NCBI GenBank assembly: GCA_020444175.1
Contig: JAHLLM010000006.1
Coordinates: 4,204-68,203, forward strand
Origin: Desulfobulbaceae bacterium
GTDB lineage: Bacteria; Desulfobacterota; Desulfobulbia; Desulfobulbales; SURF-16
Reading direction: 5' to 3'
DNA length: 64,000 nucleotides
In this document: piece by piece, positions 4,355 to 63,645 of the stretch
How the letters are laid out: each line of letters opens with the position of its first letter
How positions within the stretch are numbered: position 1 is the first letter of the stretch
The notes under the pieces: model-generated
What the model was told of the DNA's origin: nothing
What the model saw: the letters and a program-made list of their open reading frames with translations, nothing else
Databases searched by the model: none
Made by a program: the position numbers and the translations under genes

Positions 4355-4378
4355 TGAAGGAAGGTGAGGTTAAAATGT

Positions 4379-8780: not shown

Positions 8781-9314
8781 AAATTAACAACCCTTCAGAA
8801 ACAAGCCTTTGAGAATACATTTTTTAATTTGTTGAGGCTTCATACCGATAACCTTGAAGCTGTTGAACAATCATCGATTGAAACACATCCAGGGGGAGTT
8901 GAAACTGAAACCAAAATAACCAGAGGGAAAAGTGCTTTTAAAATTTTATATGAAGACTTTAAGCTAATCCTTGGTGGATATTCAGGAGGTATACATCATA
9001 CAACGTATGATAGGCACTATCAGGATATGTACGACCAGCATCAAATGGGCCTGGAACAATATTTCACAACGATTCAAAGTATAATTAAATTTATTACCGA
9101 TAATGATATCGATGATAAAAACTTCTATGTTAATCTATATAAAGCCCATTTTTCAAAATATGAACTTTTGTTGTTTTTGTACTACGAGACGAGTATTCAC
9201 GCCAACCCCTCTTTCAATAAACTATTAGTTGATTTTCAATTTTTCAATTCTCTACCGACTAAAGACTTGATAAACGAAGATGATGTTAAGGATCTAGATG
9301 GGAACTTTCCCTAG
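8763..9314 (+). pseudogene. putative abortive-infection protein (putAbiC-like), N-terminally truncated
   Basis: FENTFFNLLRLHTDNL, GKSAFKILYEDFK and YVNLYKAHFSKYELLLFLYYE...FNKLLVDFQFFNSL match my memory of the putAbiC family core. The usual N-terminal transmembrane part is missing, and the ORF begins inside the repeat array. Confidence 0.55.
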
Positions 9315-18844: not shown

Positions 18845-18850
18845 CTTGCC

Positions 18851-20167
18851 TTATAGCGTGAAAGAAGTGAGTTCGTCGTCCTCATCTCCTTCATCCTCCA
18901 TCCCTAATAAAGTGCTGGGATCGATGTCGGCTTTGAATTCGAGACCCCCCAGATGGTTCTCCCATCTTTGGTCTGGATGCTGAAGCAAAATCACGAGCAG
19001 GTCCAAGAAATATTTGGCAAAGTTCCTTGGTGTAGCGAAGTGAGAGGCCCCAACCTTGTTGTAGCAATAGTCCATAAAGGCTTGAATCCCTTGGTCGCTT
19101 ATAAGCTCTCTACCCGAATCCGCCGAGGCGACAACGATTCTTAACTTTTGAAGGAGGACGAAGGTCTCTTCTTTAGACAAAGTCGTAAGACGGATCACTG
19201 GGCCGCTCATATCCACAAGCCCGTTTTTAGCGAAAGAATTCTCCGCAAGCCTCGATTGGAGGGCTTCATAGCTGAAGAGACCTCTTCGGGTATCTGTGAG
19301 AAACTCAGGTGTGCCTCCCATCAGGAACCCCAGGCCCTCGGTAGAGCCCTGCAGGCAGTCGTTCAGGATGCGCAGAATCTGTTCGTAGTTGGCATTGCGG
19401 GACTGGGTATGGGAAAGCTTGTAAAGGTTGACCATCTCATCGAGGCAGACTAGCAATCCATCGTAACCTGCGAGTTTGACAAATCGTGCCATAAGTTTCA
19501 GGTAATCATAGAAACCAGCGTCATCGACAAAAGTGCGCACACCTAAAGCTGCCCTGGCGTCTGTTTTGGTTGTAAACTCACCCCGTAGCCACCGCACGGC
19601 ATCAGCCTTCAACTGATCGTTACCGGTGTCATGACCACGCCAGTATGCCCCGATAACATCTGCAAAATCGTAACCACCCACCATCTCGGATAGCTTCTCC
19701 AACCGTTCAGCGATTACTACACCAGGATTGGTTCCATTTGCCTTGGCTTCACCTAAGGCCGAAGAAACGAATCGCTCCACCACTGAAGCCAAGGCATTGC
19801 CTTCCGGCTTGGTGCGAGTAGACATGTTGCGCATCAACTCAGCGAAAAGGCTACGCGCCTGCCCGCCCGTACCATGTAGCCGTCTATTCGGATCAAGGTC
19901 AGCATGTGCTGTCACGAGTTTTTTGTGTAATGCGACTGTACGGACAAGTGAGAGGAAAAAGCTTTTCCCCGAGCCGTAGTCTCCGATTATCAGGCGGATT
20001 CCGGAGCCGCCATCTATGATTCTGTTGATATCGTTTATAAGAGCTTCTATCTCTCGAACACGTCCCACCTGTACGTGTTGCTGGCCAATTCTAGGCACCA
20101 CGCCGGCACGCAAAGATTGTATGATAGCGTCTCTCTCTTTTGGTCTAATCTTCGTTGCGTTGCTCAT
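18851..20167 (-). CDS. sngB: Shango-type P-loop ATPase (DUF2791-like)
   Basis: Walker A is GDYGSGKSFF and Walker B-like is LLVCLDEM. The start was moved to the ATG at 20167-20165, which overlaps the upstream TGA (ATGA). The longer ORF-track start would overlap sngA by 61 nt. Confidence 0.8.
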   Translation of the reverse strand: MSNATKIRPKERDAIIQSLRAGVVPRIGQQHVQVGRVREIEALINDINRIIDGGSGIRLIIGDYGSGKSFFLSLVRTVALHKKLVTAHADLDPNRRLHGTGGQARSLFAELMRNMSTRTKPEGNALASVVERFVSSALGEAKANGTNPGVVIAERLEKLSEMVGGYDFADVIGAYWRGHDTGNDQLKADAVRWLRGEFTTKTDARAALGVRTFVDDAGFYDYLKLMARFVKLAGYDGLLVCLDEMVNLYKLSHTQSRNANYEQILRILNDCLQGSTEGLGFLMGGTPEFLTDTRRGLFSYEALQSRLAENSFAKNGLVDMSGPVIRLTTLSKEETFVLLQKLRIVVASADSGRELISDQGIQAFMDYCYNKVGASHFATPRNFAKYFLDLLVILLQHPDQRWENHLGGLEFKADIDPSTLLGMEDEGDEDDELTSFTL

Positions 20168-22425
20168 GCTGTCATCTCTCCCAGAACCGCGTGGTCCACT
20201 TCTATTGGATCTTCCCCCTCGCATAGAGGCATATCTGCGATTTCAAATGCCGCTTCGTTTATCATTTCAATGGCACCATCCAACATCAGCCCCAATTCGT
20301 CCACCAAACTCTCCAGTTCCTGGCGCGCCCAGGATGTTTGCTCTTTCAGCCGTTTTAGAAGTGTTGAATGTGCGTGATCCAATCCGGCAACAGTATCTCC
20401 AGTCTCAACTATTGTATGAACTGGGATTGTCTCTTCTTCCTCTGAGAAAATGTCACTAAGTAGCGTGGACACAGCAGCGGTCTCGGCCAAAGTACTTTGA
20501 ATCCTCTCCATATCCAGCGTGACTGCAGCCTGAGGCGGTTGCTGCTTCTGATGGGGGATTTTGTATCCTTGTGGTACGGTGCTGGCGGTACGTACTGTAA
20601 TAGGTTCAGAGGCAGCGGGAGAAGCTATGCTCATGGATGAATGGAGTTGGCTGTGAAGAGCCGTCTCGGGAAAGCCGAGCATATTGTACATTTTGTTCAA
20701 CACCTTGATTTCTTTAGGATCTACCTTCCCATCAGCGCAAGCTACCGAAACCAAGAAGCGACCTACCTCAATCCGCTGATGTTCGCCAATTCCCTCAAGT
20801 TTTTTCTTCACCCCCGCAAAACCAGGCTGAGCGACAAGAAGCCACTTAATATGAGCACGAAGTCTCACTCGCTCAGTAGAAGAAAGGTGAAGAGAAGACT
20901 CCAAATGCTCTTCCATGCGCTGCTTTTCTTCTTCGTCTATGTGACCGTCAGCGCCGGATACCATTGCAGCCAAGTGCAATACAAGCATTGCCGCTGAATA
21001 CTCTCGGCTGGGAGACGAGATTTTTTCCCCTTCCATGCGGAATAAGAGCACCTTGTCGCTTTCTGAAAGAGACTTGCCGCCAAATCGAACATCGGGTTCC
21101 AACCCATAATTCCACCGTTCAAGCAACTGCGCGAACTGCACGGTTTCTTTTTTTGTAAGTTTGCCGGGATTATTTGATGGCCAGAAGTGCAGCAGATCGG
21201 TAGCATCCAATATTGATTCATTGGATTCAGATAGCGTTCGCTGAAGTAACGCCTTCAACTCTCCAGCTTTGGCGCCTGATGTTTCCCCAGCCAATTCATC
21301 CGGCACGAGAGAAAGGGCTGCTAACGATCCTCTGGAATCTGGATTTCTCCCTAAATAACGGCTGTAGGCGTCAAGATCGTCACAGCAGGCGTAAGCAATT
21401 TCTAGAAATTTGTTCAATGGGCGAACTACCTTCGAGACATCCGGAAGGTCAAGTTCATGACTCCAGCCAGTCCCACTGAAGGAGCCACTTGCCGGACGAT
21501 AATCGAGAGTCAGGAGGCTTTTGTTGGGTTTTATCTTTATCCCTTCGCCATACTTTGCCTGATAGCGGATCTTGAACAGTTTTGCGAACTCTTCTGGGCA
21601 ACGTTGTGCTGGTGTCCTAAGTCTTGTCTCTGGGTGCATCTCCATCCAAGCGAAAGCCCAATCAGCCGGTATCGGCCTGCCATCTTTAACAATTTGCCCA
21701 AGGCCGGCTTTCAAGGCAAAGGGCAAATCCCATCCATGTTTTTCCAGGGGCAGCGGAGCACTATCGAGAGTTTGGGAGATATACTCGTTTGCTCGGCAAA
21801 ACGATAGAAAGTTTCCGGCGTAATTGCGGAAAGACCCTCTATTGCCATAAATGGAAAGCAGTCGTTCAACTTCGGAGAGGATCGCAGGTACGTTAGAGGC
21901 TGCACCTGGTGAGCGTTTAGCATCGGCAAGGACTCTTCGTTCAAGCCCGTAAAAATAGAGAAAGACGTATCCAATGTCCGCCTGGGGATCGGATTTTCCG
22001 TTAGCAAGCCAAGATAGATAGGCAGCGCGCGCATCCGGTGAGATGTTAGAGTAAGAAGGCCAGTAATCGGTAAGTCGCTCGCTGAGGTCGGGGCAATTGC
22101 TGGCAATTTTTAGTTGCGGATTTATCAGTGCAGGTTCAATGTTGTAGTTACTACTTACACTCGGCAAGTTTTTGCCGACATAGAGCATCCCTCCCGGAAT
22201 GACATACTGTTCAACCTTAACCTCTTGTCCAGGAGGCACCCAAAGATTGTCCGGATTAGCAGGGTTCTTTATTCCATCCCATGCTTTTTCGTCTGAATAT
22301 GAGACATGAATCTCAAAATCTTCTGCTGTGATTTTAGGTTTTTGCGAAGTCCCGGCAATGAACTTTATGATCTTGTAAATAATGTAAATGAACACTAAAA
22401 GCCAGAAGATATCGGCCATCTGCAA
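20164..22425 (-). CDS. sngA: Shango-type TerB-domain protein (N-terminal TM helix, TerB-N-like, TerB and TerB-C-like regions)
   Basis: 753-aa ORF with N-terminal TM segment IFWLLVFIYIIYKIIKFIAG. TerB-like helices carry acidic motifs (LAAMVSGADGHIDEEEKQRMEEHL, VACADGKVDPKEIKVLNKMY). Gene order TerB-ATPase-helicase. Confidence 0.8.
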   Translation of the reverse strand: MQMADIFWLLVFIYIIYKIIKFIAGTSQKPKITAEDFEIHVSYSDEKAWDGIKNPANPDNLWVPPGQEVKVEQYVIPGGMLYVGKNLPSVSSNYNIEPALINPQLKIASNCPDLSERLTDYWPSYSNISPDARAAYLSWLANGKSDPQADIGYVFLYFYGLERRVLADAKRSPGAASNVPAILSEVERLLSIYGNRGSFRNYAGNFLSFCRANEYISQTLDSAPLPLEKHGWDLPFALKAGLGQIVKDGRPIPADWAFAWMEMHPETRLRTPAQRCPEEFAKLFKIRYQAKYGEGIKIKPNKSLLTLDYRPASGSFSGTGWSHELDLPDVSKVVRPLNKFLEIAYACCDDLDAYSRYLGRNPDSRGSLAALSLVPDELAGETSGAKAGELKALLQRTLSESNESILDATDLLHFWPSNNPGKLTKKETVQFAQLLERWNYGLEPDVRFGGKSLSESDKVLLFRMEGEKISSPSREYSAAMLVLHLAAMVSGADGHIDEEEKQRMEEHLESSLHLSSTERVRLRAHIKWLLVAQPGFAGVKKKLEGIGEHQRIEVGRFLVSVACADGKVDPKEIKVLNKMYNMLGFPETALHSQLHSSMSIASPAASEPITVRTASTVPQGYKIPHQKQQPPQAAVTLDMERIQSTLAETAAVSTLLSDIFSEEEETIPVHTIVETGDTVAGLDHAHSTLLKRLKEQTSWARQELESLVDELGLMLDGAIEMINEAAFEIADMPLCEGEDPIEVDHAVLGEMTA

Positions 22426-28872: not shown

Positions 28873-29640
28873 TTAATTTGAAATATTTAGAAAACCACTA
28901 AGTTGTTCATGAGTCACAACAAAACGGTCGTCTGTAACTTGATTTAGCCTCCTCGCTCCACCTGGCAATAATTTCCCCCCACGAGTTGAGAATGAAACAT
29001 TCACAATTCGTTTTCCACTATCTTTTAAATGTTTTACTGCTGGAACATAATCCTGATCTCCAGATACAATGATTGCTATGTCATAAATTTCTTGTAGCAT
29101 GATCATATCAACAGCCAATTTTACATCAACAGCCTTTTCATTTCCAAGTTCTTGAGTAAACAGATTATACCGAATAGCTCCTTCTCGCCTAAATTCAATA
29201 GCCGAGTGATTTATACCGATTGACGCTTGAACCTCAGCCCATCCTCGTGCACGAGCAAGCATACGAGATTTTCTATGATTAAGTATTTCGCTATATTCAC
29301 GCAATTTAATTAACAGCGCTTCTGGGTCGCTATTCAACGAGACAATTTCATCCGCCCAATCTTGATTTCTTTTAAAAAGCCGTGATGCCGTATCTTTTTC
29401 ACGGTCAACATTTGGTATTCTATATGGCCAACAATCGATATGTTCTATGACATACCAATAAGTCCTAACTCGTTCGCATTCATCGCATCCACAGGCAATC
29501 TCCCCAACTAACCAATTAAAAAAATCACCCCACTTCGCATCTTTGGGGAGATAATCTGATTTATCGAAATTGTTGAAAAGGTCCGTGATGGCATGCCTAA
29601 AATTTTCTCCATCAACAAAAACGCAGCATCTTTTATACAT
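28873..29640 (-). CDS. NYN-domain (LabA/DUF88-like) protein
   Basis: Start placed at MYKRCCVFVDGENFRH (ATG 29640-29638). Other motifs are AVDVKLAVDM and IIVSGDQDYVPAVKHL. The ORF-track extension reads through the homopolymer tract and is unlikely. Confidence 0.8.
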   Translation of the reverse strand: MYKRCCVFVDGENFRHAITDLFNNFDKSDYLPKDAKWGDFFNWLVGEIACGCDECERVRTYWYVIEHIDCWPYRIPNVDREKDTASRLFKRNQDWADEIVSLNSDPEALLIKLREYSEILNHRKSRMLARARGWAEVQASIGINHSAIEFRREGAIRYNLFTQELGNEKAVDVKLAVDMIMLQEIYDIAIIVSGDQDYVPAVKHLKDSGKRIVNVSFSTRGGKLLPGGARRLNQVTDDRFVVTHEQLSGFLNISN

Positions 29641-29646
29641 TTCTGT

Positions 29647-29661
29647 CCCCCCCCCCCCCCC
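29647..29661. repeat. C15 (G15 on the coding strand) homopolymer 6 nt upstream of the NYN start codon
   Basis: Direct count gives c at 29647-29661, followed by a9 at 29662-29670. Confidence 0.95.
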
Positions 29662-29692
29662 AAAAAAAAAGCGGAGAACCGTGGTTCTCCGC
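29662..29692 (-). terminator. Rho-independent terminator of the 299-aa gene
   Basis: The minus strand reads GCGGAGAACC-AC-GGTTCTCCGC followed by T9, about 125 nt after the stop at 29818. Confidence 0.7.
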
Positions 29693-29817
29693 ATCGCTAT
29701 ATTGCCCAGGAAGCACCCAGGCGGTTCTCTATGCTAATTTTATGACAAATAAAATATGTGTCAAGTTCACTTTATTTATAATCAATCGTCGGGTTCGATT
29801 CAAGTAAAAAAAATCTA

Positions 29818-33919: not shown

Positions 33920-34254
33920 ATTTCCTCCTCCCTCAATAATTTTTCATTAGAGATTATATAAATTTTAGGTACCAATACCCTCTATTTAAGTCGTTACCAT
34001 CTAACAATTAGAAGTATTTCATTGTAGACGCAGAATGTAAATGTGGCATATTGTCTCATTGGAAATATCTGTTCTGTGATACTCATGAATTTTCAAGGGA
34101 ATCCTCACTACGGTATGAGGTCTCAATGTGGTTAGTCGGCTTATGCCGCACTGACTCTTCTTATCCCCTATCCCCCATGGGGGAACGAGACAAGAGAACA
34201 AATCCCCTTTTCTCGTGCTCTTTTCCCCGTAATTTTTTTGCTATTTCAACATCA

Positions 34255-34509
34255 GGCCGCGCTCTGCGTCCAGAGTCACGCCACCAGGTTAGACAAAAAC
34301 ATCCTGGTGTCATGCCGCCGGACAGGTGCAGAGCCGGAATTTTCTTCATTAGTTTATCGCTCTTTCATAACAGCAATAAGGATGCGCTTTTAGGTTTCGC
34401 GCTCTTGATTCTTTTTTTCGCCTTCCCTGTGCCCAGTGAAGGGAAGGACGAAAAAAATGGTTTTTAAGAAGATAGATCAACAAATAAACCTAACGATGAG
34501 AGGTGTGAA
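34255..34509 (+). promoter_or_regulatory. structured leader A, copy 1 (upstream of ardC)
   Basis: Aligns along its whole length with 63402-63645. It has a long imperfect hairpin at 34261-34334 and a T7/A7-armed hairpin at 34412-34457. The gagaggtgtgaaATGag start context is identical in both copies. Confidence 0.6.
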
Positions 34510-35088
34510 ATGAGCGTGAAAATTTACCAGATGATTACCGACAAAGTTTTGGAGCTTTTAGAGGCTGGGGTCATTCCTTGGGCAAAATCATGGACAGGAG
34601 CTGAACCCCAGAACGTAATTACCGGGCGGGAGTACAGGGGCATTAATGCTTTTCTTTTGGGCTGCACAGGTGCTACCCCTTACTGGTTGACATTTAACCA
34701 GGTGAAAAAGGCCGGTGGTATAGTTAAGAAGGGCGCAAAATCAATGCCTGTTATTTTCTGGAAGTGGTTGGAGAAGGAAGACCAGGAAACCGGAGAAAAA
34801 CAGAGTCACCCAATTTTAAGATATTACCGTGTTTTTAATCTCCATGATGTTGAAGGAATAGAGGCCCCGGAGGTTATCAAGCACGAAGAAGGCGAAAAGC
34901 CTGTTCCATTGTTTCAATGTGCCGCAATTATCGCCAATATGCCTCATCCGCCTGCACTGTATCATGGCAGCGCAAAGCCCTTTTATCGTCCTTGTGAGGA
35001 TGCGGTTTATATGCCTGATTTTGAAAATTTTATAAGTGCAGAAGAATATTACAGTGTGGCTTTTCATGAATTTGGCCATTATGCCTGA
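34510..35088 (+). pseudogene. ardC: ArdC-like anti-restriction protein, 5' part (interrupted)
   Basis: N-terminal ssDNA-binding-domain signatures (IPWAKSW, REYRGINAFLL, WLTFNQVKKAGG, RYYRVFN). The reading frame ends at AFHEFGHYA*, inside the HExxH motif, where the RIT inverted repeat begins. Confidence 0.8.
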
Positions 35089-35264
35089 CTTCGGATTATG
35101 CCGAGCTAATACTCTAAACTGCGCAAAAATGTTGGGTGGCTGGTATGTTTTTCGGCATAATCAAAGTGCTCCTCGGGCATCCACAAGTTGTAAGCCAAAT
35201 TTAGATTGAAAAACTCTGTCGTGAGTCCCATTCATAAGAATTTCACCTAAAACAAGGAGGACTT

Positions 35265-36515
35265 ATGACATCGGGAAAAAAATTTGGCAACACAACCACA
35301 CAAAAAGTAGAGTGGCTGGCACCTCATCGACAAATATTCATAGAAAAGCTCAAGGCACAGGGCTACGTGCTCTGTTCAATTCGCCATTATGATAGGATAG
35401 TCCGCCGATTCTGCGAGGAGATTGAACAACGCGGGCTCAGCGCCAAAGATCTTGATGGATCTGCTTTAGAAGCCATTCATGAGGCAGTATTGAGCAAAAC
35501 AGGTAAAAGCATTCACACCTATACTATGTTTTGCTTAAAGCGATTCATCAATCATCTTATTGATACTGGAATTGTCGTCCTTCCAGAGCCACAAGCTAAG
35601 GAATTGACAGCCATGGACCATCTGCGTGAGGACTATGAAACATACTTACGCAAGCAGCGTGGATTGAGTGAATCTACAATTTATCATTGCATGCGTTTTC
35701 TAGAAAGATTCATGAGTTTCCGCTTTGGTGATGTGTTAGGAGACCTGAACTCCATTACAGCGGCTGATGTTGTATCCTTCCTGTGTCAGCGCATGGCCGG
35801 TTCACAGCCTTATCGTGACAAAACACCTCCAACACATCTACGAAATTTGTTTAAGTTCCTGTTCTGGAGTGGAAAGACCAAGCGTAATTTGGCTCAAAGC
35901 ATTCCGCGTGTCGCTCAACCCAAGCACGATAATCTGCCCCGCTATCTGAAGCCGGAAGAAGTTCAACAATTACTTGAAGCGGTCCGAACAAATGATGCGA
36001 TCGGCCGCCGCAACTATGCAATGTTGCTACTGCTTGCCCGCCTTGGACTACGTGCGCCAGAGGTCATCGCAATTCAGCTCGATGATATCGACTGGCGGTC
36101 TGGTGAAATTTTGATTCGTGGCAAGGGTAAATTGCATGATCGTATGCCTCTTGTAACCGATGTTGGTGAAGCCATAGTTGATTACATCACAGACGGGCGG
36201 GTAGGAACTTCTCGTACCTTGTTTGTCACCAGTAAGGCACCTTACCATCCTTTTAAGGACGCCCAGATTCTGAACTATATCCTGAAAAAGGCACTTGTAA
36301 AAACGAAGATCAAACCGCCGCAGAAATATATTGGTTCTCATATTCTTCGCCACAGCCTTGCTACTGACATGCTTCGTCAGGGAGCTACACTTGGTGAGAT
36401 AGGTATAATACTGCGACATCGATCTCGAATGACAACAACGATCTATGCCAAGCATGATATCGATTCATTGCGAGCAATTGCCCAGACCTGGCCAAAGCAG
36501 GGAGGTGCTCAATGA
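35265..36515 (+). CDS. tyrosine recombinase, first gene of the trio
   Basis: 416 aa with LGLRAPEVIAIQLDDIDW, HILRHSLATDM and LRHRSRMTTTIYAK. The stop overlaps the next start (ATGA). Confidence 0.85.
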   Translation: MTSGKKFGNTTTQKVEWLAPHRQIFIEKLKAQGYVLCSIRHYDRIVRRFCEEIEQRGLSAKDLDGSALEAIHEAVLSKTGKSIHTYTMFCLKRFINHLIDTGIVVLPEPQAKELTAMDHLREDYETYLRKQRGLSESTIYHCMRFLERFMSFRFGDVLGDLNSITAADVVSFLCQRMAGSQPYRDKTPPTHLRNLFKFLFWSGKTKRNLAQSIPRVAQPKHDNLPRYLKPEEVQQLLEAVRTNDAIGRRNYAMLLLLARLGLRAPEVIAIQLDDIDWRSGEILIRGKGKLHDRMPLVTDVGEAIVDYITDGRVGTSRTLFVTSKAPYHPFKDAQILNYILKKALVKTKIKPPQKYIGSHILRHSLATDMLRQGATLGEIGIILRHRSRMTTTIYAKHDIDSLRAIAQTWPKQGGAQ

Positions 36516-37459
36516 CATCACTTACCACTCACCTCGAAAATTATCTCAATGTTCGGCGTAACCTTGGCTATGATCTCTCTACAGCAGAACGAGTATTACG
36601 AAGATTTACTTGTTTTGTGGATGATCAGGGTGCTGACCATATCACCGTCGATATGTTTCTACGATGGAAAGAACAATTTGGGTCAGCGAATAACAATACC
36701 TGGTCCAGACGTCTTGGGATGGTACGTTTATTTGCTGCCTGGCTCCAAGGCATTGATCCCCGCAATGAGGTACCACCCGTTGGGCTGATATCGGGAAAAA
36801 ATCATCGGCCACGGCCCTATATCTACACTCCTGAACAGATAGCAAATATTGTTTCTGCAGCAGCCAAGCTTCCTTCACCCTACGGGCTGCGGGGAAAGAC
36901 CTGTTCAACGATGTTCGGGTTGATAGCAGTCACTGGATTGCGTGTCAGCGAAGCGATCGGGCTTGACGAAAAGGATGTAGATCTCGATAACGCTGTTCTC
37001 ACCGTCAGATGTGGAAAGAACGGTAAATTCCGATTCGTACCTATTTCGTCATGTGCTGTAGATCGCCTTGGTGTTTACCGTGCTGAACGGAATAGGCTCC
37101 TTGGCACCGGTAGGTCACCGTTTTTTCTCCATGAGAGTGGTCAGCGCCCCGGAGACTGTAGTGTCAGGTATAACTTTGCACGAATCAGCCAATTCATTGG
37201 CCTTCGTGACCGTCAAGTGTTCCACAAACATGGTCGAGGTCCACGTATACATGATTTGAGGCATACGTTTGCAGCCCGTACGATCATTGACTGGTACAAG
37301 AAAGGGCTTGATCCAGATCGCGAAATGATCAAGCTCAGTACTTATCTGGGACATTCAAAGCCTGAGTACACATACTGGTACATAGAAGCAGTTCCGGAAC
37401 TGTTGCGACTTGCTTCTATGCGGGCAGAAAGATCCATAACTGCAGGGGGTGAGGCATGA
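36512..37459 (+). CDS. tyrosine recombinase, second gene of the trio
   Basis: 315 aa with TGLRVSEAIGLDEKDVDL, HDLRHTFAARTI and LGHSKPEYTYWYIE. There is an ATGA overlap at both ends. Confidence 0.85.
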   Translation: MTSLTTHLENYLNVRRNLGYDLSTAERVLRRFTCFVDDQGADHITVDMFLRWKEQFGSANNNTWSRRLGMVRLFAAWLQGIDPRNEVPPVGLISGKNHRPRPYIYTPEQIANIVSAAAKLPSPYGLRGKTCSTMFGLIAVTGLRVSEAIGLDEKDVDLDNAVLTVRCGKNGKFRFVPISSCAVDRLGVYRAERNRLLGTGRSPFFLHESGQRPGDCSVRYNFARISQFIGLRDRQVFHKHGRGPRIHDLRHTFAARTIIDWYKKGLDPDREMIKLSTYLGHSKPEYTYWYIEAVPELLRLASMRAERSITAGGEA

Positions 37460-38454
37460 AAATTTACTCACTACCCATTTATGTACAGCGGTTCTTCACC
37501 GAACGTCTCGCTACTCAACTAAAAGCCAGCCCAAATACGGTAGCAAGCTACCGAGATGCTTTCCGTCTTTTGCTGAAATACGCATCCGATCAGATTGGAC
37601 GTGCTCCTACCGATCTTCAGGTCGCCGACATAGATACCACTATCGTCGGAGGTTTTCTCGTTTTTATAGAAACCGTACGTGGCAATGGTGCCCGAAGCCG
37701 AAACACGCGACTTGCGGCTATTCGGTCATTTTTTAAGTATGTAGCAGTCAATGAACCTCAGCTCCTGCACCATTGCCAGCGTATCCTCGCTATGCCGTCA
37801 AAGCGGTATAATAAGCGTACGATAGACTATTTAAATCCTGCCGAAATCGATGCACTCCTCGCTGCACCCAATTTGACGACCTGGTACGGTCGCCGTGACC
37901 ACACTCTACTTCTACTTGCCTTACAGACTGGTCTCAGGGTGTCAGAATTAATCAACCTGACATGCGGTGATATCGTTCTGGGAACGGGGGCTCATGTTCG
38001 ATGTATGGGCAAAGGACGGAAAGAACGTTCCACGCCACTCAGAAAAGACTGTGAAGAAGCTCTACGCAATTGGCTAATGGGACATGCTGATGATGATCAA
38101 CCCAAGCCTCTCTTCGTTAGCAATCGTGGAGGACAGCTAAGTCGTGACGCCATTGAGCGTATTGTTCATAAATATGTAAAGTTGGCCTCCAGCGAGTGCG
38201 CGACGCTGAAAGATAAGAGGGTAACACCACATGTACTACGTCACAGTGCAGCAATGCAGCTTCTCCAGAACGGTGTAGATCGCACTGTAATTGCACTTTG
38301 GCTGGGCCACGAATCAGTGGAAACCACTCAGATGTATATCCACGCCAATATGGAAATGAAGGAGCAAGCCATGGCAAAAACGAAACCAGTAACTGCACCT
38401 GCTGGTCGATATAAGCCCAATGACAAGTTACTTGCCTTCCTGGAAGCACTTTGA
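37456..38454 (+). CDS. tyrosine recombinase, third gene of the trio
   Basis: 332 aa with TGLRVSELINLTCGDI, HVLRHSAAMQLL and LGHESVETTQMYIHA. Confidence 0.85.
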   Translation: MKIYSLPIYVQRFFTERLATQLKASPNTVASYRDAFRLLLKYASDQIGRAPTDLQVADIDTTIVGGFLVFIETVRGNGARSRNTRLAAIRSFFKYVAVNEPQLLHHCQRILAMPSKRYNKRTIDYLNPAEIDALLAAPNLTTWYGRRDHTLLLLALQTGLRVSELINLTCGDIVLGTGAHVRCMGKGRKERSTPLRKDCEEALRNWLMGHADDDQPKPLFVSNRGGQLSRDAIERIVHKYVKLASSECATLKDKRVTPHVLRHSAAMQLLQNGVDRTVIALWLGHESVETTQMYIHANMEMKEQAMAKTKPVTAPAGRYKPNDKLLAFLEAL

Positions 38455-38567
38455 TTATGCCGATAACCAAACCGACCAACCGGTACTGCTGGCAGTATCA
38501 ACAGTACCGGCTCGGCATAATCCGAAGTCAGGCATAATGCATGTTATGCCGATATCGGCATAAGGCT

Positions 38568-38852
38568 CATGCAACCGGCCACCAAAGCCGGTTAAGCAGG
38601 GCAGGTGTTATAGATGATATTAATTTTGGCAGTGATAAATACTCTCAAGAAGAGCTTGTGGCGGAAATGACAGCCGGTTTTTTGTGCGGTATTGCCGGGA
38701 TTGACAACAAGACTCTTGAAAACAGCGTTGCCTATATCCAGGGTTGGGTGCAACGTTTCCAGGATAAACCTAAAATGGTTGTTTTAGCTGCTGCCCAGGC
38801 GCAAAAGGCTGCAGACTATATTGTCGGTAATTTTCAGGGAGACGAAGAATAA
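38568..38852 (+). pseudogene. ardC: ArdC-like anti-restriction protein, 3' part
   Basis: The frame reads H-ATGHQSRLSR...FGSDKYSQEELVAEMTAGFLCGIAGI...NSVAYIQGWV...AAAQAQKAADYI. This is the metalloprotease-domain continuation expected after HEFGH. Confidence 0.8.
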
Positions 38853-39034: not shown

Positions 39035-39081
39035 GGTCCCCTTGCTCCGCAAGCCGCTTACCCCACCCGAAACCACTTCCC
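39035..39081 (+). repeat. 47-nt direct repeat C, copy 1
   Basis: ggtccccttgctccgcaagccgcttaccccacccgaaaccacttccc versus copy 2 at 40816-40862 (5 mismatches by eye). Confidence 0.8.
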
Positions 39082-40815: not shown

Positions 40816-40862
40816 GGACCCCTTGCTCTGCAAGCCGCTTACCCCACCCGAGACCCTTCCCC
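40816..40862 (+). repeat. 47-nt direct repeat C, copy 2
   Basis: ggaccccttgctctgcaagccgcttaccccacccgagacccttcccc. Confidence 0.8.
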
Positions 40863-41279
40863 TCAACCCCGCTTCACCATTTCCCGTCGTCCAGATTGTA
40901 ACCTGTGTTTGGCTATCTTTCTCCAGCCCTCATGGCTGTGCGGTTCGTTTCATACATGCATCAAAAAACATCCGGCTGCCTCTATTCAGCTTGCACTATT
41001 CTTCTTTCCAGATCAGCTTTTTCTATTCTCAGTCTTGCTCCTGCAGAATTTCTTAAAGCCATTCTAAGCCCCTCTCTTTCGTTTGCCGGCTCGCTGTTTT
41101 TAATGTGGCCACTGTAGCCGGGCGTCTCGAAAAACAAGGCCAAGCCTTTTGGAAAGATATGAAAAAATGACGGAAGGGGAGTTATTTTTTAAAATCTTTG
41201 CCATGTTTTTGTTCCTCTTGTTCCTGCTGAAAAACGTGTCACAAAACATCAACCCATAACTCAAAAGGAGGAACAAGAA

Positions 41280-41465
41280 ATGGCTAAAAGAATAATGCAA
41301 ATCGTTGGAGCAAAAAAAGTTGAAGGTCAGAAACACGCAATCTGGACCAGGATTGGAACAGCTTTTGAAAACTCGGATGGCAGCATGAATCTGGTTTTTG
41401 ATTACTTTCCGTTAAATCGTGAAATTTCTCTCCAGGTCCGAGAGCTGGATAAGAAATCGGACTAG
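41280..41465 (+). CDS. small conserved-looking hypothetical protein (61 aa)
   Basis: A strong AAGGAGG lies upstream and a terminator follows. The product is MAKRIMQIVGAKKVEGQKHAIWTRIGTAFENSDGSMNLVFDYFPLN.... Confidence 0.6.
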   Translation: MAKRIMQIVGAKKVEGQKHAIWTRIGTAFENSDGSMNLVFDYFPLNREISLQVRELDKKSD

Positions 41466-41474
41466 CCAAACAAC

Positions 41475-41507
41475 AAGCCGTCCTGCCCGGGCGGCTTTCT
41501 TTTTGTT
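41475..41507 (+). terminator. Rho-independent terminator
   Basis: AAGCCG...CGGCTT stem around a GC-rich loop, followed by TCTTTTTGTT. Confidence 0.55.
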
Positions 41508-41540: not shown

Positions 41541-41679
41541 AAGGATGACACTCTCCCTGGCGGGCAGGGTGTCTGCTTGCAGCTCCCTAACCCTCACTGC
41601 GCGGTGAGGGAATCAAGGTGGACAGTCGATAGCCGCGCTGTCTCTTCATCAGAAGCCCCCATCCCCGGCAGCCCGCCCT
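41541..41679 (+). repeat. structured repeat B, copy 1
   Basis: aaggatgacactctccctggcgggcagggtgtc...ccctcactgcgcggtgaggg...gacagtcg..gcgctgtc...cccggcagcccgccct. Differs from copy 2 at fewer than ten positions by eye. Confidence 0.85.
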
Positions 41680-41809
41680 TGCGCATTATTGCGTAACGCA
41701 TGATAGAGTAAAATTATTTATGACGCCTTGATGTATAACGGTGTTTAATCGGTTGACTTTTGATGAAATGGGTCATATTTTATCCGTAAAGTTAATTAAG
41801 GGGTAAATT

Positions 41810-42151
41810 ATGTCTCGTAAGAATTTGTCACAACAAAGTCTCCCTCCTTCAATTTTACATTCCATTGTACAGTTGGGTGAACGTGTTCGGATCGCTCGAA
41901 AAAGACGAGCAATGACCATGGAGGACATGGCCTCACGAATGTTTGTCACTCGGAAAACACTGGCACGACTTGAGAAGGGTGATCCAGGGGTTTCATTTGC
42001 TGTATTTGCTTCAGCACTCTGGGTTTTGGGTCTTGAAAAAGATCTTTTGAGTATTGCTGCTCCGGAACAGGACAAGATCGGGATTTTCCAGGAACGCAAA
42101 CGATTACCTGAGCGGGTTCGCAGGCCCCGTTCTGATGATTTGGATTTCTGA
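41810..42151 (+). CDS. hipB: XRE-family HTH antitoxin HipB-like
   Basis: 113 aa with the HTH segment LGERVRIARKRRAMTMEDMASRMFVTRKTLARLEKG. It ends 2 nt before hipA. Confidence 0.75.
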   Translation: MSRKNLSQQSLPPSILHSIVQLGERVRIARKRRAMTMEDMASRMFVTRKTLARLEKGDPGVSFAVFASALWVLGLEKDLLSIAAPEQDKIGIFQERKRLPERVRRPRSDDLDF

Positions 42152-42153
42152 TT

Positions 42154-43371
42154 ATGGCTGAGCAAAAACTTGTAGTTTTCATTTATTTGCCCGAAGAGAC
42201 GGTTGCTGTTCCGGCAGGAATTTTTACTCACGATAGTGAGGCAGGAATCGGTTCCTTTGCCTATGGACGGAAGTATCTGGAAAGAAGTAATGCTCTTCCT
42301 GTTGATCCTGTCGCTTTACCTTTGGGTGAAACTCCTGTTTTGGTCAGAAGCAATGGTGGGTTGTATGGCGCATTTCGTGATGCCGCTCCAGATTATTGGG
42401 GCAGGCTTGTTATAGCTGCAGAAGCAAAGCTTGCTCCAGAGGCTCTTTCAGAAATAGATTTTCTTGAGGCAGCTAACGCCACTCGGGTGGGCAACCTTGA
42501 TTTTCGTGACTCGATTGAAACTCCTGAACCTGATCTTGTTCCTCCTCATTTTGACCAGTTGGAGCGGATAATTGCTGTTGCCGGGCAGATTGAAGCAGGG
42601 GAGGAAGCTGAGAGTCATCTTGTTCAGCTCCTCCGTCAGGGAACCAGCATGGGTGGGGCACGTCCCAAATGCACAGTCGAGTGGGATGATGCTTTGTGGA
42701 TTGCCAAATTCCCGGCAAAAGATGATACATTGAATATTTCTTGTATTGAATATGCAACCATGAAGCTTGCGGAAAAATGCGAGATTAATATACCAGAGAT
42801 ACGTCTTGTTCAGGTAGGCGGGAAGGATGTATTTCTTTCGAGGCGATTTGATCGGGGAAAAACAGGAAAGAGGTGGAAGAGAAAAGGCTTTATCAGCTCA
42901 TTGTCGTTTATGCAATGGGATGAGAGTGATCGCTTGCAGTGGGATTATTCAGCTATAGCTGCCAATATGCGACGGTACATGGAACCGGCTTATATTCAAG
43001 AGTTTTTCCGCCGGATGGTATTCAATATTCTTGTGCGCAATACAGATGATCATCCCAGGAATCATGGCATGTTGATTGATGGAGATAAAATGTATCTTTC
43101 TCCAGCTTATGACATAGTTCCTTCAATTACTCGGAAGGGAATCGGAACCAGCTTCAGGCTTGCCATGTCGGTTGGAAGTCAAGGGCGTGAAGCTAATATT
43201 GAAAATGCTCTTAGCCAATCCGCCAGCTTCGGCTTCCCGGCAGAGGATGCAGCTGATGTTGTGGAAAAGATGATAACCGCCATCAACAATTGGCAAGAGT
43301 TATATCGAGAGAGTGGGGTTTCCGAACGCGATCTTGAGGTAATTGCCCCTTCCTTTGGTTTTTGTGACTAA
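42154..43371 (+). CDS. hipA: HipA-family kinase toxin
   Basis: 405 aa with GTSMGGARPKCTV, WIAKFP and RNTDDHPRNHGMLIDG...LSPAYDIVP. Confidence 0.85.
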   Translation: MAEQKLVVFIYLPEETVAVPAGIFTHDSEAGIGSFAYGRKYLERSNALPVDPVALPLGETPVLVRSNGGLYGAFRDAAPDYWGRLVIAAEAKLAPEALSEIDFLEAANATRVGNLDFRDSIETPEPDLVPPHFDQLERIIAVAGQIEAGEEAESHLVQLLRQGTSMGGARPKCTVEWDDALWIAKFPAKDDTLNISCIEYATMKLAEKCEINIPEIRLVQVGGKDVFLSRRFDRGKTGKRWKRKGFISSLSFMQWDESDRLQWDYSAIAANMRRYMEPAYIQEFFRRMVFNILVRNTDDHPRNHGMLIDGDKMYLSPAYDIVPSITRKGIGTSFRLAMSVGSQGREANIENALSQSASFGFPAEDAADVVEKMITAINNWQELYRESGVSERDLEVIAPSFGFCD

Positions 43372-43440
43372 AGTCCCTACCTTAACGGGGTAAAGCTATC
43401 CCTGGAAAGGGCGTAGGTAGTTTCTTTTCTTGCAAAATTG

Positions 43441-43580
43441 AAGGATGACACTCTCCCTGGCGGGCAGGGTGTCTGCATTCAGCTCCCTAACCCTCACTGC
43501 GGGGTGAGGGAATCAAGGTGGACAGTCGATTCCCCGCGCTGTCTCTCTATCAGAAGCCCCCATACCCGGCAGCCCGCCCT
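43441..43580 (+). repeat. structured repeat B, copy 2
   Basis: Same element as 41541-41679, in the same orientation, 70 nt after the hipA stop. Confidence 0.85.
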
Positions 43581-43688
43581 GTTAATCTTTTATAGCAATT
43601 TTTTGTTGATAATTGTTTTAGATTTTAACTTTTCCCGTAGGCGGTGTGTTATATTTTTGATCGCTTAAAACAAACTGGAGATAACAAA

Positions 43689-44213
43689 ATGGATTATTCC
43701 GATATCATAGAATTTCACGGTCATGAATGTCCTGGACTTGCAATTGGTTACAGGATGGCTTGTGCAGGAATGGCAGCCCTCGATTCAATAAGGTCCGAAG
43801 ATGAGGAAGTGATTGCTATAGTTGAGAATGATGCCTGCGGAGCTGATGCTCTGCAATGTGTAACCGGCTGTACTTTTGGGAAAGGGAATCTCTTTTTCCA
43901 TGATCATGGAAAACAGGTTTATACACTTTATTCCAGAACAACACGAAAAGGTGTCCGTATTGTCTTTCATAGGAAAGGTGCACCAGAAGGCATAAGTGAG
44001 GACAGAGCTGCCTTTGCGAAATGGATACTTTCTGCTCCTGAAGAGAGCATAATCACCATAACCGAAGTAATTATTTCTGAACCTGAGCCGGCAAGAATTA
44101 TGAAATCTCAACCTTGCTCCTTATGTGGTGAACAGGTTATGGAATCACGATTGGAATGGGTGAATGGAAATCCTTTATGTATTCCGTGTTCGGCGAAGAA
44201 GAAAAACGGATGA
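43689..44213 (+). CDS. FmdE-family protein with a C-terminal zinc ribbon
   Basis: GGAG precedes ATG 43689. Motifs are FHGHECPGLAIGYRM, NDACGADALQCVTGCTFGKGNL and CSLCGE...CIPC. Confidence 0.75.
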   Translation: MDYSDIIEFHGHECPGLAIGYRMACAGMAALDSIRSEDEEVIAIVENDACGADALQCVTGCTFGKGNLFFHDHGKQVYTLYSRTTRKGVRIVFHRKGAPEGISEDRAAFAKWILSAPEESIITITEVIISEPEPARIMKSQPCSLCGEQVMESRLEWVNGNPLCIPCSAKKKNG

Positions 44214-44710
44214 GCCGGTCATTTCCACAGTAATCTTAGATAATAATACAGGAGTAAAATCCATGGAGCAGTAGTAGCCGGTTTCGGTCTCATTCAAATG
44301 TTACTCTTATTTGCCGGCATTATGCAATACTCATCCCATTCTTCGTGTTTCGGATTCGGAGTGAAAGCATAAAAACAAAACAAAAACTTGATGAACTGAT
44401 CAGCCTTTTGAAAATGTCCCAAAATCTGCCAGTCAATACGGTGCCGTGCTTGCGAGTGCCTGTCCGCCTGCCTGGTGATACTGGGCAAAGTCTGTCAAAA
44501 CAGGAAAACACAGCGGCAGAATCAATCGATGAAAGACAGTTGTGCGAAGATAAAAATTGTCTCGGAAAATTGGGTCTGAGGGAAAGTGCGAGTCCATTTA
44601 CAGCGTATTCCACCTGTTTTTAAATACGTTTAAGAGCCTTCAAATCCATCTTTGACAATTAAAATTCGTCAAATATATTTTTTCATTTTTCTTCTTGACA
44701 AATGTTACTT

Positions 44711-44751
44711 CACTCTTTATCCTATGTCCTAAGGACATAGGATAAAGAGTG
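44711..44751. promoter_or_regulatory. 41-bp perfect palindrome (20-bp arms), candidate AbiEi operator 1
   Basis: cactctttatcctatgtcct-a-aggacataggataaagagtg. Confidence 0.6.
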
Positions 44752-44815
44752 ATTAAACCCTTTTCTATTCTGGCATTTTGGATTTATCTATAAATAAAAC
44801 TTGAAAAATTTATGC

Positions 44816-44856
44816 AAGCATGATATGTGAATCCTTAGGATTCACATATCATGCTT
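44816..44856. promoter_or_regulatory. 41-bp perfect palindrome (20-bp arms), candidate AbiEi operator 2, overlapping a putative promoter
   Basis: aagcatgatatgtgaatcct-t-aggattcacatatcatgctt. TTGAAA at 44801-44806 lies 17 nt before tatgtg, which is inside the palindrome. The palindrome ends 13 nt before the abiEi ATG. Confidence 0.6.
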
Positions 44857-44869
44857 ACCAAAACATCTC

Positions 44870-45787
44870 ATGAAATCATCTCAACCAATCCTATTAAGTA
44901 AAGCCATCGCTCTCTCCTTAGGCGAACTGAACCAACCAGTAGTATCAAAATATCAACTAGGAGTATTGATTTACCATCTCTACTTATCAACAAGTTATCA
45001 CGGAAGTCCAATTGGAAATTTGAAGTTAAACTCGCCAGACCTACCGGCCTTTAATTACCACCTTAAAAAGTTATTAGAGTTAGGAATAATCACCCCTAGT
45101 ACTAAATTAAAGTCATCTGTTTTTAACATTTTAGGAAAAGAATCCAACTCCCCAGCTGAAATTGCTTGTTCTATAGACCCCTTCGCATATATCTCGCACC
45201 TCAGCGCAATGGAATATCACGGCATCACAGACAGGCTTCCAAAAATACTCTTTTTATCCACACCAGAACAGAGAAAATGGAGAGAATTCGCGCAAGATCG
45301 AATGCTAAAAGACTTAAAAGAAAACTTGGATGATTACCTTGAAAGTAGGCTTCCAAAACTTGCACGAATTAATTTTGAAAAAATTGGGGCCACTAACATT
45401 AATAGATATTCTAGCCTTCACTATGGGGCATATAAATCTGTCAAAGATAGCCCTTTAAGAGTTTCAACCATTGGGCGCACATTTTTAGATATGCTCCGAG
45501 CCCCTAATCTATGTGGAGGGATATATCACGTCATTGAGGTCTACCAAGAATATACCCCTTCTTACCTCAATTTAATTACTGATGAGATTGATAGGCACGG
45601 GAAATCAATAGATAAAGTCCGCGCTGGTTACATTTTAGAAGAAAAATGCAATGTCCAGAACAACCCCGCGATCGAATCTTGGCAAAAATATGTCCAACGA
45701 GGAGGCTCTCGAAAACTGGACATAACCCAAGAGTATAGCCCAAACTACTCAGAACGGTGGTGCCTTTCATTAAACATTTTTGAGTGA
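44870..45787 (+). CDS. abiEi: type IV TA antitoxin AbiEi-like
   Basis: 305 aa. The segment FAYISHLSAMEYHGITDRLPKILFLSTP is typical of AbiEi-family proteins. It lies immediately upstream of an AbiEii-type gene. Confidence 0.7.
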   Translation: MKSSQPILLSKAIALSLGELNQPVVSKYQLGVLIYHLYLSTSYHGSPIGNLKLNSPDLPAFNYHLKKLLELGIITPSTKLKSSVFNILGKESNSPAEIACSIDPFAYISHLSAMEYHGITDRLPKILFLSTPEQRKWREFAQDRMLKDLKENLDDYLESRLPKLARINFEKIGATNINRYSSLHYGAYKSVKDSPLRVSTIGRTFLDMLRAPNLCGGIYHVIEVYQEYTPSYLNLITDEIDRHGKSIDKVRAGYILEEKCNVQNNPAIESWQKYVQRGGSRKLDITQEYSPNYSERWCLSLNIFE

Positions 45788-62698: not shown

Positions 62699-63266
62699 GG
62701 TATCACCTGAAACAGTTCATATGTTTTGTTTCAAAATACATTAAAAAATGAGCAGGTCCAGGACGAAAAAATGGTGGATTGCGGGGGAGTCAAGGAGGCG
62801 GATGCAACAGATTCGGGGAATCCGAGAAAGAGACGTGTTGTTTGAAAATAACCTGAATTTTTAGAGATTCGGTGAAACGGAGGTGAGCCCTGCTGGGAAG
62901 CAACTCTCCAAGGGATAACCGGATGAGCGGCGAATGCCGTGGTGTCGGGGGAGTCTTCGGGATCCCCAATTTTTTAGGGGCAGAATATTCGCTGCTCCTT
63001 ATGCCTCAAAAAATCCCGGGGTTTGGGGCAGAGCCCCATAAAACAAAACTCTCAACTCTAAACATTATTTTTCGTGAATAGCTGTCATCATTCATCGCGA
63101 ACAGGCTCACCCTTCAAATGTACCGAAATCAACACTTCATATTGACTTGTACTTTCTATAAATTTCTTTTCTGACATAGCACACACACAATTACCCTCCC
63201 AAATTAAAATAACCTCCCATAGTAGGACTAGCGGGGACACTTGAACGACCCTTGCATTGCTCCATT

Positions 63267-63369
63267 AAGGTTGACACTCTCCCTTCGGGCAGGGTGTCTG
63301 CTTTCAGCTCCCTAACCCTCACTGCGTGGTGAGGGGATCAAGGTTGACAGTCGGCTGAGCCGCGCTGTC
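63267..63369 (+). repeat. structured repeat B, copy 3 (3' part replaced by leader A copy 2)
   Basis: aaggttgacactctcccttcgggcagggtgtc...ccctcactgcgtggtgaggg...gacagtcggctgagccgcgctgtc. Confidence 0.8.
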
Positions 63370-63401
63370 GTCTGTTTCGCCTTCAATGGCCATCACTTTT
63401 T

Positions 63402-63645
63402 GGCCGCGCTCTGCGTCCAGAGTCCCGCCACCGGCAAACTACCCCCGGTGTCATGCCGCCGGACAGATGCAGAGCCGGAATAATCTTTTGGTGGGCACCG
63501 TTTGTTTTACACAATAAGGATGCGCTCTTAGGTTCCGCGCTCTTGATCTTTTTTTGACCTTCCCTCGGTCGAGTGAAGGGAAGGCCAAAAAAATGGTTTT
63601 TATGAAGGAAGATCAACTAACTAACCTTACATGGAGAGGTGTGAA
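63402..63645 (+). promoter_or_regulatory. structured leader A, copy 2 (upstream of the methyltransferase)
   Basis: See 34255-34509. Confidence 0.6.

Follow-up and report, generated by a model that had tools for sequence, protein, structure and literature searches.

What is the hairpin-rich element of about 140 nucleotides (nt) that recurs in direct orientation on either side of a hipBA toxin-antitoxin pair in a 64-kb stretch of a Desulfobulbaceae genome (64,000 nt of contig JAHLLM010000006.1, hereafter the window)? A first-pass annotation of this DNA had offered three candidate roles, namely a small RNA or untranslated-region (UTR) element, a recombination or cassette-junction site, and a repeat resembling a miniature inverted-repeat transposable element (MITE). 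Here we describe the core of the element, which we refer to as the module, as a structured, non-coding sequence of ~105–115 nt that is genuine and conserved, belongs to a narrow family of conjugative elements and matches no catalogued family. The first of the three roles is the best supported, by the avoidance of change in the stems, two compensatory pairs, differing loop lengths, cUUCGg loops and continuity with a downstream leader, and the other two (recombination in the sense of a site-specific mechanism) are not supported. The reading that we tentatively favour, with slightly less than even confidence, is that the module acts in the establishment and anti-defence region of a conjugative element as a plus-strand structured RNA, be it a terminated short transcript or a leader with an attenuating role.

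A repeated and conserved hairpin module

Three intact copies of the module lie at 41541–41679, 43441–43580 and 63265–63373, all on the plus strand, which bears out the number, orientation and placement given by the first-pass annotation. An alignment of copies 1 and 2 (139/140 nt) has 8 mismatches and 1 indel, in keeping with the fewer than ten differences that it had counted. To these three must be added a fourth: a degenerate pattern that covers stem 2 and the box after it, CCTCACTNCGNNNTGAGGN{2,3}TCAANGT, is matched four times in the window against 0.00 expected, and the last of these matches (34103–34129) marks a decayed copy at 34083–34159, likewise on the plus strand. A covariance model built from ten copies found no others in the 64 kb; it scores the cores of copy 1 (41541–41646), copy 2 (43441–43547) and copy 3 (63265–63380) at 125.5, 116.9 and 117.7 bits, respectively, and copy 4 at 14.7 bits (E = 5.5e-4 in a 301-nt search).

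The core of copy 1 comprises a box, AAGGATGACA (41541–41550), stem-loop 1 (41547–41573), a mini-hairpin (41575–41583), stem-loop 2 (41591–41610, extended by a CCT/AGG pairing to 41586–41618), a further box, AAGGTGGACA (41615–41624), and stem-loop 3 (41621–41642). Stem-loops 1 and 3 occupy 43447–43473 and 43521–43543 in copy 2, and copy 3 carries stem-loop 1 with a cTTCGg loop at 63273–63298, stem-loop 2 at 63316–63335 and stem-loop 3, followed by GTCTGTTTCG, at 63346–63369. The three stems reported at first pass for each copy are present, and the internal boxes are real, with seven matches to AAGGNKGACA in the window against 1.04 expected, six of them inside module copies. In the decayed copy 4, stem 1 is lost, stem 2 is weakened (34103–34120) and stem 3 (34131–34155) carries an A-T to T-A and a C-G to T-G change. 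The copies come in two forms: copies 1 and 2 end in a short tail (41647–41679 and 43548–43580; the short form), and copy 3, which retains ~40 nt of a 5’ flank common to the copies in relatives, belongs to a long form that continues into a second conserved unit, leader A.

A single scan of the genome collections and another of the metagenome collections returned nine true matching loci and two chance ones, and homologues of the downstream ArdC and methyltransferase genes led to three more copies, two in locus L013 (L013a and L013b) and one in L023. In all, eleven distinct module copies are spread across five lineages: the window genome; the metagenome-assembled genome (MAG) JAHIVT01 together with JGI Ga0180007/8; MAG JAZDEG01; JGI Ga0364475; and ENA ORXD01 together with JGI Ga0068714. 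The four lineages other than that of the window are uncultivated and carry near-identical copies. Every copy is co-oriented with the genes downstream of it, the cargo differs between genomes, and the neighbours in relatives encode type IV secretion, ArdC, a DUF4942 methyltransferase and HipBA. In L013, VirB10 and two small genes precede module a, after which come leader A, ardC, one more small gene and module b; in L001 the module is found with VirB11/B2/B3, ParA and HU; and in L023 an AcrVA2-like gene (an anti-CRISPR family; 3394–4425) adjoins the methyltransferase gene that carries the module and leader A. An AcrVA2-like gene stands beside a DUF4942 methyltransferase gene in L011 as well (7050–8099).

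The family is narrow, as the covariance model found no copy upstream of more distant ArdC homologues (54–57% identity; L014, L015, L020–L022) or DUF4942 homologues (57–64% identity; L016–L019). The module is also absent from current catalogues. Neither the element nor the element joined to leader A matched any of the 72,556 plasmids in PLSDB (blastn, word size 11), and there was no match in phage records (blastn) or in IMG/VR (three pattern scans). Rfam 15 gave 0 matches at the gathering threshold over the 64-kb window, relaxing the cut-off to E <= 10 or E <= 5 for the copies, leader A and L013 brought up only chance-level ones (E > 0.01, far below gathering), and a search for transfer and transfer-messenger RNAs gave none.

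Within this family the core is far better conserved than its surroundings. When the window is compared with L010 or L001, identity reaches 94% for the module core and 85% for the tail, compared with 73–75% for an upstream open reading frame (ORF) of 61 amino acids (aa), 74–75% for hipB and hipA (L010) and 33–48% for the immediate flanks. This contrast bears on the possibility that the module is a selfish or decaying repeat, such as a MITE, a PATE or REP-like element or a set of duplicated intergenic remnants, with no function of its own. The module is multi-copy, with signs of weakening in copies 1 and 2 and decay in copy 4, and three assemblies (L006, L008 and L012) end inside it, as expected of a repeat. 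A functionless repeat, however, would hardly keep its core so much more constant than neighbouring coding DNA across five lineages, nor concentrate its variation in loops, and the window holds only four copies, all co-oriented with genes and all in conjugative-element modules. Moreover, terminal inverted repeats and target duplications, as at the end of a MITE or an insertion sequence, were not found: no inverted repeat pairs the two ends of the module and no target is duplicated in its flanks. We regard this explanation as very improbable, and the MITE-like role proposed at first pass is likewise not supported.

The consensus fold of the ten copies (RNAalifold) contains five helices, namely stem-loop 1 (11 base pairs (bp) with a bulge), the mini-hairpin (3 bp), stem-loop 2 (7–8 bp), the CCU/AGG helix that extends stem-loop 2, and stem-loop 3 (9 bp). 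Substitutions avoid the stems: 9/68 paired columns are variable compared with 15/31 unpaired ones (Fisher p = 3e-4), and 12 of the 19 columns in hairpin loops and bulges vary. Loop lengths also differ among copies. Among 34 pairs, two show compensatory change, A-U to G-C in stem 2 and A-U to U-A in stem 3, both in L013a, and the stem 3 change occurs in copy 4 too. The observed covariation was reached by only 3 of 500 shuffles, and slid registers score lower. We take the substitution pattern as moderate evidence for a folded strand, in a family too narrow for a firm test. One further pairing was discarded: the first-pass annotation had joined the two ends of the element through GGCGGGC and GCCCGCC, which can pair in copies 1 and 2, but this closing helix or pseudoknot is broken without compensation in both L001 (GACGGGC/GCCCGCC) and L005 (GACGGGC/GCCCACC).

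The same palindromes could, in principle, be read by a protein as double-stranded DNA. The inverted repeats and the AAGGNTGACA / AAGGATGCGC boxes would then be operators for a regulator encoded by the conjugative element, which would run several operons as one regulon, in the manner of the Kor operators of IncP plasmids. Consistent with this idea, several unrelated operons have promoter-like sites downstream of the module, each long unit contains three boxes of one kind (one of them in leader A), and the sequence itself, not just its pairing, is very strongly conserved in stems and linkers. The spacers of the three palindromes, however, vary in length (3–4, 6–7 and 3–6 nt), which breaks the half-site phasing expected of dimeric repressors and argues against an operator for a dimeric protein. 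In addition, the compensatory changes retain pairing yet alter both half-sites, and the hairpin of leader A, with four covarying pairs over different stem sequences, is typical of a folded strand. No regulator is consistently adjacent, and the 61-aa ORF matches no DNA-binding family or fold. On balance, a set of operators appears improbable.

Strand, possible termination and a candidate transcript

If the module folds, on which strand does it do so? The consensus folds are nearly equal in energy (–41.3 kcal/mol for the plus strand and –39.6 kcal/mol for the minus strand), each strand has its own G-U pairs, which are A-C mismatches on the other, and the informative substitutions are few and split. 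The suggestion made at first pass that G-U wobble hints at an RNA role fails for this reason, and strand assignment from wobble pairs was dropped as ambiguous.

Three other features favour a plus-strand RNA. In eight of the eleven copies counted (L001, L002, L004, L005, L011, L013a, L013b and the decayed copy 4 of the window), stem 3 is followed on its 3’ side by a T-run with 6–9 T in 10 nt, which in L001 reads TCTTTTTTTT. The energy of stem 3 ranges from –7 to –13 kcal/mol overall, from –9 to –13 in the relatives, and is –7 in window copies 1 and 2. Judged from these sequences, stem 3 and its T-run look terminator-like on the plus strand in most relatives; a terminator pattern scanner flags L013a only, because stem 3 has a bulge. 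The first-pass annotation had rejected a terminator for want of a U-tract, which is correct for the end of the 140-nt unit but overlooks the run that follows stem 3, because copies 1 and 2, the pair that it compared, have lost theirs. The second feature is the cUUCGg loop that closes stem 1 in copy 3 and L013a, an RNA-specific stabiliser. The third is the unbroken passage of the long form into leader A, a structured leader whose conservation reaches the start codon of two unrelated genes (see below). A separate plus-strand terminator is found ~80 nt downstream of module copy b in L013.

The sequences establish the copy number, conservation, hairpins, substitution pattern, T-runs and gene context of the module; its transcription, polarity, termination and any regulatory effect are inferred. 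In the reading that we favour, a plus-strand transcript, running in the same direction as the downstream genes, would start close to the AAGGATGACAC box, near AAGGATGAC, and extend for ~110 nt to the U-run after stem 3. It would fold into stem-loop 1, the mini-hairpin and stem-loop 2, and would end or pause at stem-loop 3, a G+C-rich hairpin followed by the U-run, giving as its product a terminated RNA of small size or, alternatively, the beginning of a long leader, with an attenuating role. In the long form, read-through into leader A would allow the module to set the amount of anti-restriction protein made, and in the short form the terminator-like hairpin and the C-rich tail would be followed by the cargo’s own promoter (hipBA, fmdE). 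Leaders with an intrinsic terminator (attenuators), and the short RNAs that they release, are among the closest known systems, as they too are co-oriented with genes and have a structured 5’ part, a G+C-rich hairpin with a U-run, and a further leader that reaches the Shine-Dalgarno sequence. The module differs from them in that no alternative (anti-terminator) pairing was found and that, in the short form, the leader does not itself contain a downstream gene.

Several observations weigh against this reading. Pairing cannot decide the strand, given that the minus strand folds almost as well. The covariation amounts to two pairs, both from one diverged copy (L013a); stem 1 is invariant in all copies, with complementarity and a variable loop as its only support; and the folding z-scores of single copies are modest (–1.1, –1.5 and –3.2). 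The T-run is weak in the three intact window copies, with 4 T in copies 1 and 2 and 5 T in copy 3. A promoter scanner found no convincing sigma-70 promoter upstream of the module. The best candidate seen by eye, TTTACC/TTGAAC-N16-18-CATTAA, is weak; it sits in the ~40-nt 5’ flank common to L001, L004, L005, L008 and copy 3, and is missing from copies 1 and 2 and from both L013 copies. Finally, the short form stands between the terminator of the upstream gene and the promoter-like site of the cargo, and is not obviously inside an mRNA, and the module shows no target complementarity at ribosome-binding sites.

A number of additional candidates were tried and rejected. A search for targets of a trans-acting RNA gave only scattered chance matches of 10-mer complementarity. 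A minus-strand small RNA from the tail would have a promoter-like site only beside copy 1, the scanner finding none in L001, L005 or L013 or beside copy 2. A 20-aa leader peptide starting at AAGGATG is shifted out of frame by 1-nt loop indels (by inspection). CsrA-type GGA sites, a sigma-54 box, a LexA box and an IHF site, all sought by eye, were not convincing.

Leader A and the conjugative context

As the first-pass annotation had noted, copy 3 runs directly into leader A copy 2 (63402–63645, plus strand), with which it is continuous and which reaches the ribosome-binding site and start codon of a DUF4942-family methyltransferase gene (63646 onward). Copy 4 has the corresponding position directly upstream of leader A copy 1 (34255–34509, plus strand), itself upstream of ardC (plus strand), whose N-terminal domain is encoded at 34510–35088 and whose C-terminal part at 38541–38852. 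In the long form the module leads without a break through leader A to the ribosome-binding site of either ardC or the methyltransferase gene, and the conservation of leader A extends past the Shine-Dalgarno sequence as far as the ATG in both of these unrelated genes. Leader A is itself a conserved structured unit, consisting of a long irregular hairpin with four covarying pairs (segments CACCGG, CATCGG, CACAAA and CACCAG with their partners) and invariant internal loops, and of a 17-bp hairpin closed by T7/A7.

Leader A is also present in L004, L011 and L013, and it contains a pyrimidine stretch that is able to pair with the Shine-Dalgarno sequence. The fold of copy 3 suggested a long-range pairing between the 5’ flank and the Shine-Dalgarno region, which was rejected, as inspection showed it to be absent from the same three loci. 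In the MAG contig of L002 (~3640–3770, on the minus strand of the locus) leader A is cut off at its AAGGATGC box, where it meets a serine-recombinase gene without its 5’ end; this junction is due either to rearrangement at the box or to chimeric assembly at a repeat. In the window, ardC (34510–38852) is split by a ‘recombinase in trio’ element (35077–38539), with three Phage_integrase ORFs at 35265–38454 and 37-nt terminal inverted repeats that are 92% and 84% complementary.

The gene context raises a different possibility, in which the module works as single-stranded DNA (ssDNA). The strand transferred during conjugation would fold and act either as a single-strand promoter of the Frpo kind or as a site (ssi) at which complementary-strand synthesis is primed, so that the anti-restriction, methyltransferase and toxin-antitoxin genes are expressed or converted early. 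Genes for ArdC, a methyltransferase, a toxin-antitoxin pair and an AcrVA2-like protein, all co-oriented and close to type IV secretion genes, match the anti-defence islands described in plasmid leading regions (PMC11541004), and the favoured RNA reading would likewise place the module in a ‘leading-region-like’ part of a small family of conjugative elements. In the F plasmid, Frpo1 and Frpo2 are 92% identical, lie ~5 kb apart and flank the flmAB toxin-antitoxin genes, whose proposed role is to guard the segment against being lost when the Frpo repeats recombine (PMC9849209). The module resembles Frpo and the ssi sites of F and ColIb-P9 in being a dispersed, non-coding repeat in one orientation (~92–94% identity between copies) upstream of establishment and anti-defence genes, with a toxin-antitoxin unit between two copies, in our case a pair that is 94% identical and flanks hipBA. 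By analogy, hipBA may play the same protective role between copies 1 and 2. The equal folding of the minus strand fits an ssDNA signal as well, as does the tail of the short form, a four-G-tract motif on the minus strand, which would be the template (such motifs occur only 4 times in the 64 kb, against 0.4 expected).

The architecture of the module fits an ssDNA signal less well. Frpo is ~300 nt long and forms one long stem-loop that rebuilds a –35/–10 pair, whereas the module consists of three to four short hairpins on either strand, with stems of at most 12 bp, and a 426-nt minus-strand DNA fold is multi-branched. No –35/–10 pair is rebuilt in any stem on either strand, by inspection or, in any conserved form, with the scanner; some copies do have TTGACA at the base of stems 1 and 3, with no –10 element at 16–18 nt (by inspection). 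The PLSDB sequences, among which the module has no match, include F-like plasmids, and the T-run after stem 3 and the cUUCGg loops suit plus-strand RNA rather than minus-strand DNA. Neither oriT nor a relaxase gene was located within the sequence examined. We consider an ssDNA signal unlikely, albeit the strongest competitor of the RNA reading.

By context, the nearest described analogue is the STAXI motif (Rfam RF01728), a structured motif that lies on mobile elements beside antirestriction and integrase genes and for which UUCG loops were used to argue for RNA (PMC2864571). Both are conserved, structured, non-coding motifs made of repeated structural units near antirestriction, integrase and DNA-handling genes, and both raise the question of RNA or ssDNA. 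STAXI, in contrast, consists of pseudoknot repeats in Enterobacterales, while the module has three simple hairpins, the last of them terminator-like, is found in uncultivated genomes labelled as Proteobacteria, and has no Rfam match even at E <= 10.

What would such a module do? It is doubtful, but conceivable, that the module and leader A represent an undescribed class of timing device of conjugative elements, either an RNA attenuator or small RNA, or a non-canonical ssDNA signal with a G-quadruplex-type tail. Such a device would switch on the ArdC, methyltransferase and toxin-antitoxin genes briefly, just after entry into a new cell, and would be a functional counterpart of Frpo that has a different architecture and occurs outside the enterobacterial plasmids where control of this kind is known. 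The module is in any case a concrete, testable candidate for the timing of anti-defence gene expression outside the enterobacterial F/IncI model, where control is largely unknown, and it illustrates that directly repeated regulatory modules can flank a toxin-antitoxin pair, as Frpo1 and Frpo2 do with flmAB. If it were only a terminator-bearing intergenic block, it would be an ordinary lineage-specific feature.

The hipBA bracket and neighbouring genes

In four lineages (the window, L001, L005/L007/L010 and L008) the short form is preceded by the 61-aa ORF and an intrinsic terminator, which in the window occupy 41280–41507 on the plus strand (ORF 41280–41465, terminator 41475–41507), and L005, L007 and L010 keep the full order of 61-aa ORF, terminator, module and hipBA. 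Downstream of copy 1 are hipB (41810–42151) and hipA (42154–43371), both on the plus strand and with their own promoter-like site at 41753–41781. Copy 2 is followed by its own cargo, a gene for an FmdE-domain/TraR-type zinc-finger protein (43644–44213, plus strand), with AbiE genes and an integrase gene further downstream. The first-pass statement that the copies flank hipBA exactly is only approximately true, as 130 nt, including the promoter-like site, separate copy 1 from hipB and 69 nt separate the hipA stop codon from copy 2. The idea of a bracketed cassette also needs recasting. Nearly all genes from 34 to 48.5 kb lie on the plus strand, which shows the layout to be a repeated unit of module plus cargo (module–leader A–ardC, module–hipBA, module–fmdE and module–leader A–methyltransferase), and the bracket is better described as two successive units of this kind, one ending in the hipBA operon and the next in fmdE.

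How the bracket arose can be read from copies 1 and 2 themselves. They share four derived states seen in no other copy: the TGGC loop, CGAT in stem 3 with the loss of one pair, replacement of the T-run by CATCAG or TATCAG, and the same 5’ truncation point. These mark them as sister copies that arose in this lineage, and the hipBA bracket is likely the result of a lineage-specific duplication of the module, or of conversion or recombination between modules, rather than of a cassette mechanism. Having lost the 5’ flank and most of the U-run, copies 1 and 2 may be weakened. In L005 a single module copy, with intact flanks, lies upstream of hipBA, and in L010 the sequence ends 57 nt after the hipA stop codon, placing any second copy beyond view.

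A cassette mechanism would make the module an attachment-type site, at which a site-specific recombinase, or a relaxase that recognises the nick-like ...GCCCGCCCT end, inserted cargo units such as hipBA and left direct repeats behind. The repeats do bracket a 1.9-kb toxin-antitoxin unit, the homology of copies 1 and 2 breaks off abruptly at both ends (5’ at AAGG and 3’ at ...GCCCGCCCT), the downstream cargo differs between genomes, a second pair of repeats (39035 and 40816) brackets another block, and several tyrosine recombinase genes lie nearby. Integron attC sites, which span roughly 57–141 nt, are similar in size and are also hairpin-forming direct repeats that separate co-oriented cassettes, among which toxin-antitoxin cassettes are common. 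The module, however, is not a single imperfect palindrome or bottom-strand hairpin with R''/L''-L'/R' cores: inspection revealed neither R'' (RYYYAAC) nor R' (GTTRRRY), and the module, whose ends are AAGGATGACAC... and ...GCCCGCCCT, is a series of separate hairpins. The nearby tyrosine recombinases match the generic Phage_integrase family only, and no integron integrase or attI was recognised, although no IntI-specific test was made. No recombinase is consistently linked to the module across loci, and the orders module–hipBA and ORF–terminator–module recur in other genomes, which argues that the module was inherited vertically and not inserted again and again. Downstream of the module, the cargo genes have promoters of their own, a leader with its ribosome-binding site is fused to the long form, and the constraints on the internal hairpins would not be explained by a crossover site. 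We give little credence to the recombination or cassette-junction role proposed at first pass, and a resemblance of GCCCGCCCT to MOBQ nick sites, seen by eye, was not convincing.

The tail that distinguishes the short form, GAAGCCCCCATNCCCGGCAGCCCGCCCT, follows stem 3 and contains four C-tracts (41656–41678 in copy 1 and 43557–43579 in copy 2), equivalent to a G-quadruplex-type motif on the minus strand. Each related short-form locus has such a four-tract motif in the tail only. The four variable positions of the tail all fall outside the consensus C-tracts, with a chance probability of (14/28)^4 = ~0.06, which is no more than suggestive of conservation of the tracts. The tail is a candidate for a C-rich RNA that loads Rho or for a quadruplex in ssDNA, or it may be neither.

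The 61-aa ORF returned only itself in a homology search and has no Pfam, NCBIfam or PDB sequence match, and its AlphaFold model (pLDDT 74) has no significant fold match. The region upstream of it (41151–41279) is 87% conserved, compared with 73–75% for the coding sequence. The second pair of direct repeats (39035–39081 and 40816–40862) is 47 nt long and 87% identical, each repeat having a small hairpin, CTTGC..GCAAG, followed by C-tracts; it brackets a minus-strand block for cupin, DUF1499 and DUF1643 proteins in a layout like that of the hipBA bracket. Two adjacent palindromes with 34-nt arms, 82% complementary (44697–44765 and 44802–44870), lie directly upstream of an AbiEi-like gene (44870–45787), for which they may be autoregulatory operators.

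Taken as a whole, the window resembles a mosaic in which defence genes alternate with remnants of mobile elements. A minus-strand defence-type cluster (16637–22425) encodes a DEAD-box helicase, a BrxC/BrxD-type ATPase and a TerB-N/TerB-C protein, and four tandem 25-nt repeats (8666–8790) are found between an rve-type transposase-like ORF (7600–8658) and an AbiC-like ORF (8763–9314). Lastly, a minus-strand NYN-domain ORF (28873–29694) contains, ~35–45 nt from its 5’ end, a run of 15 C (29647–29661) that may be a phase-variable homopolymer.

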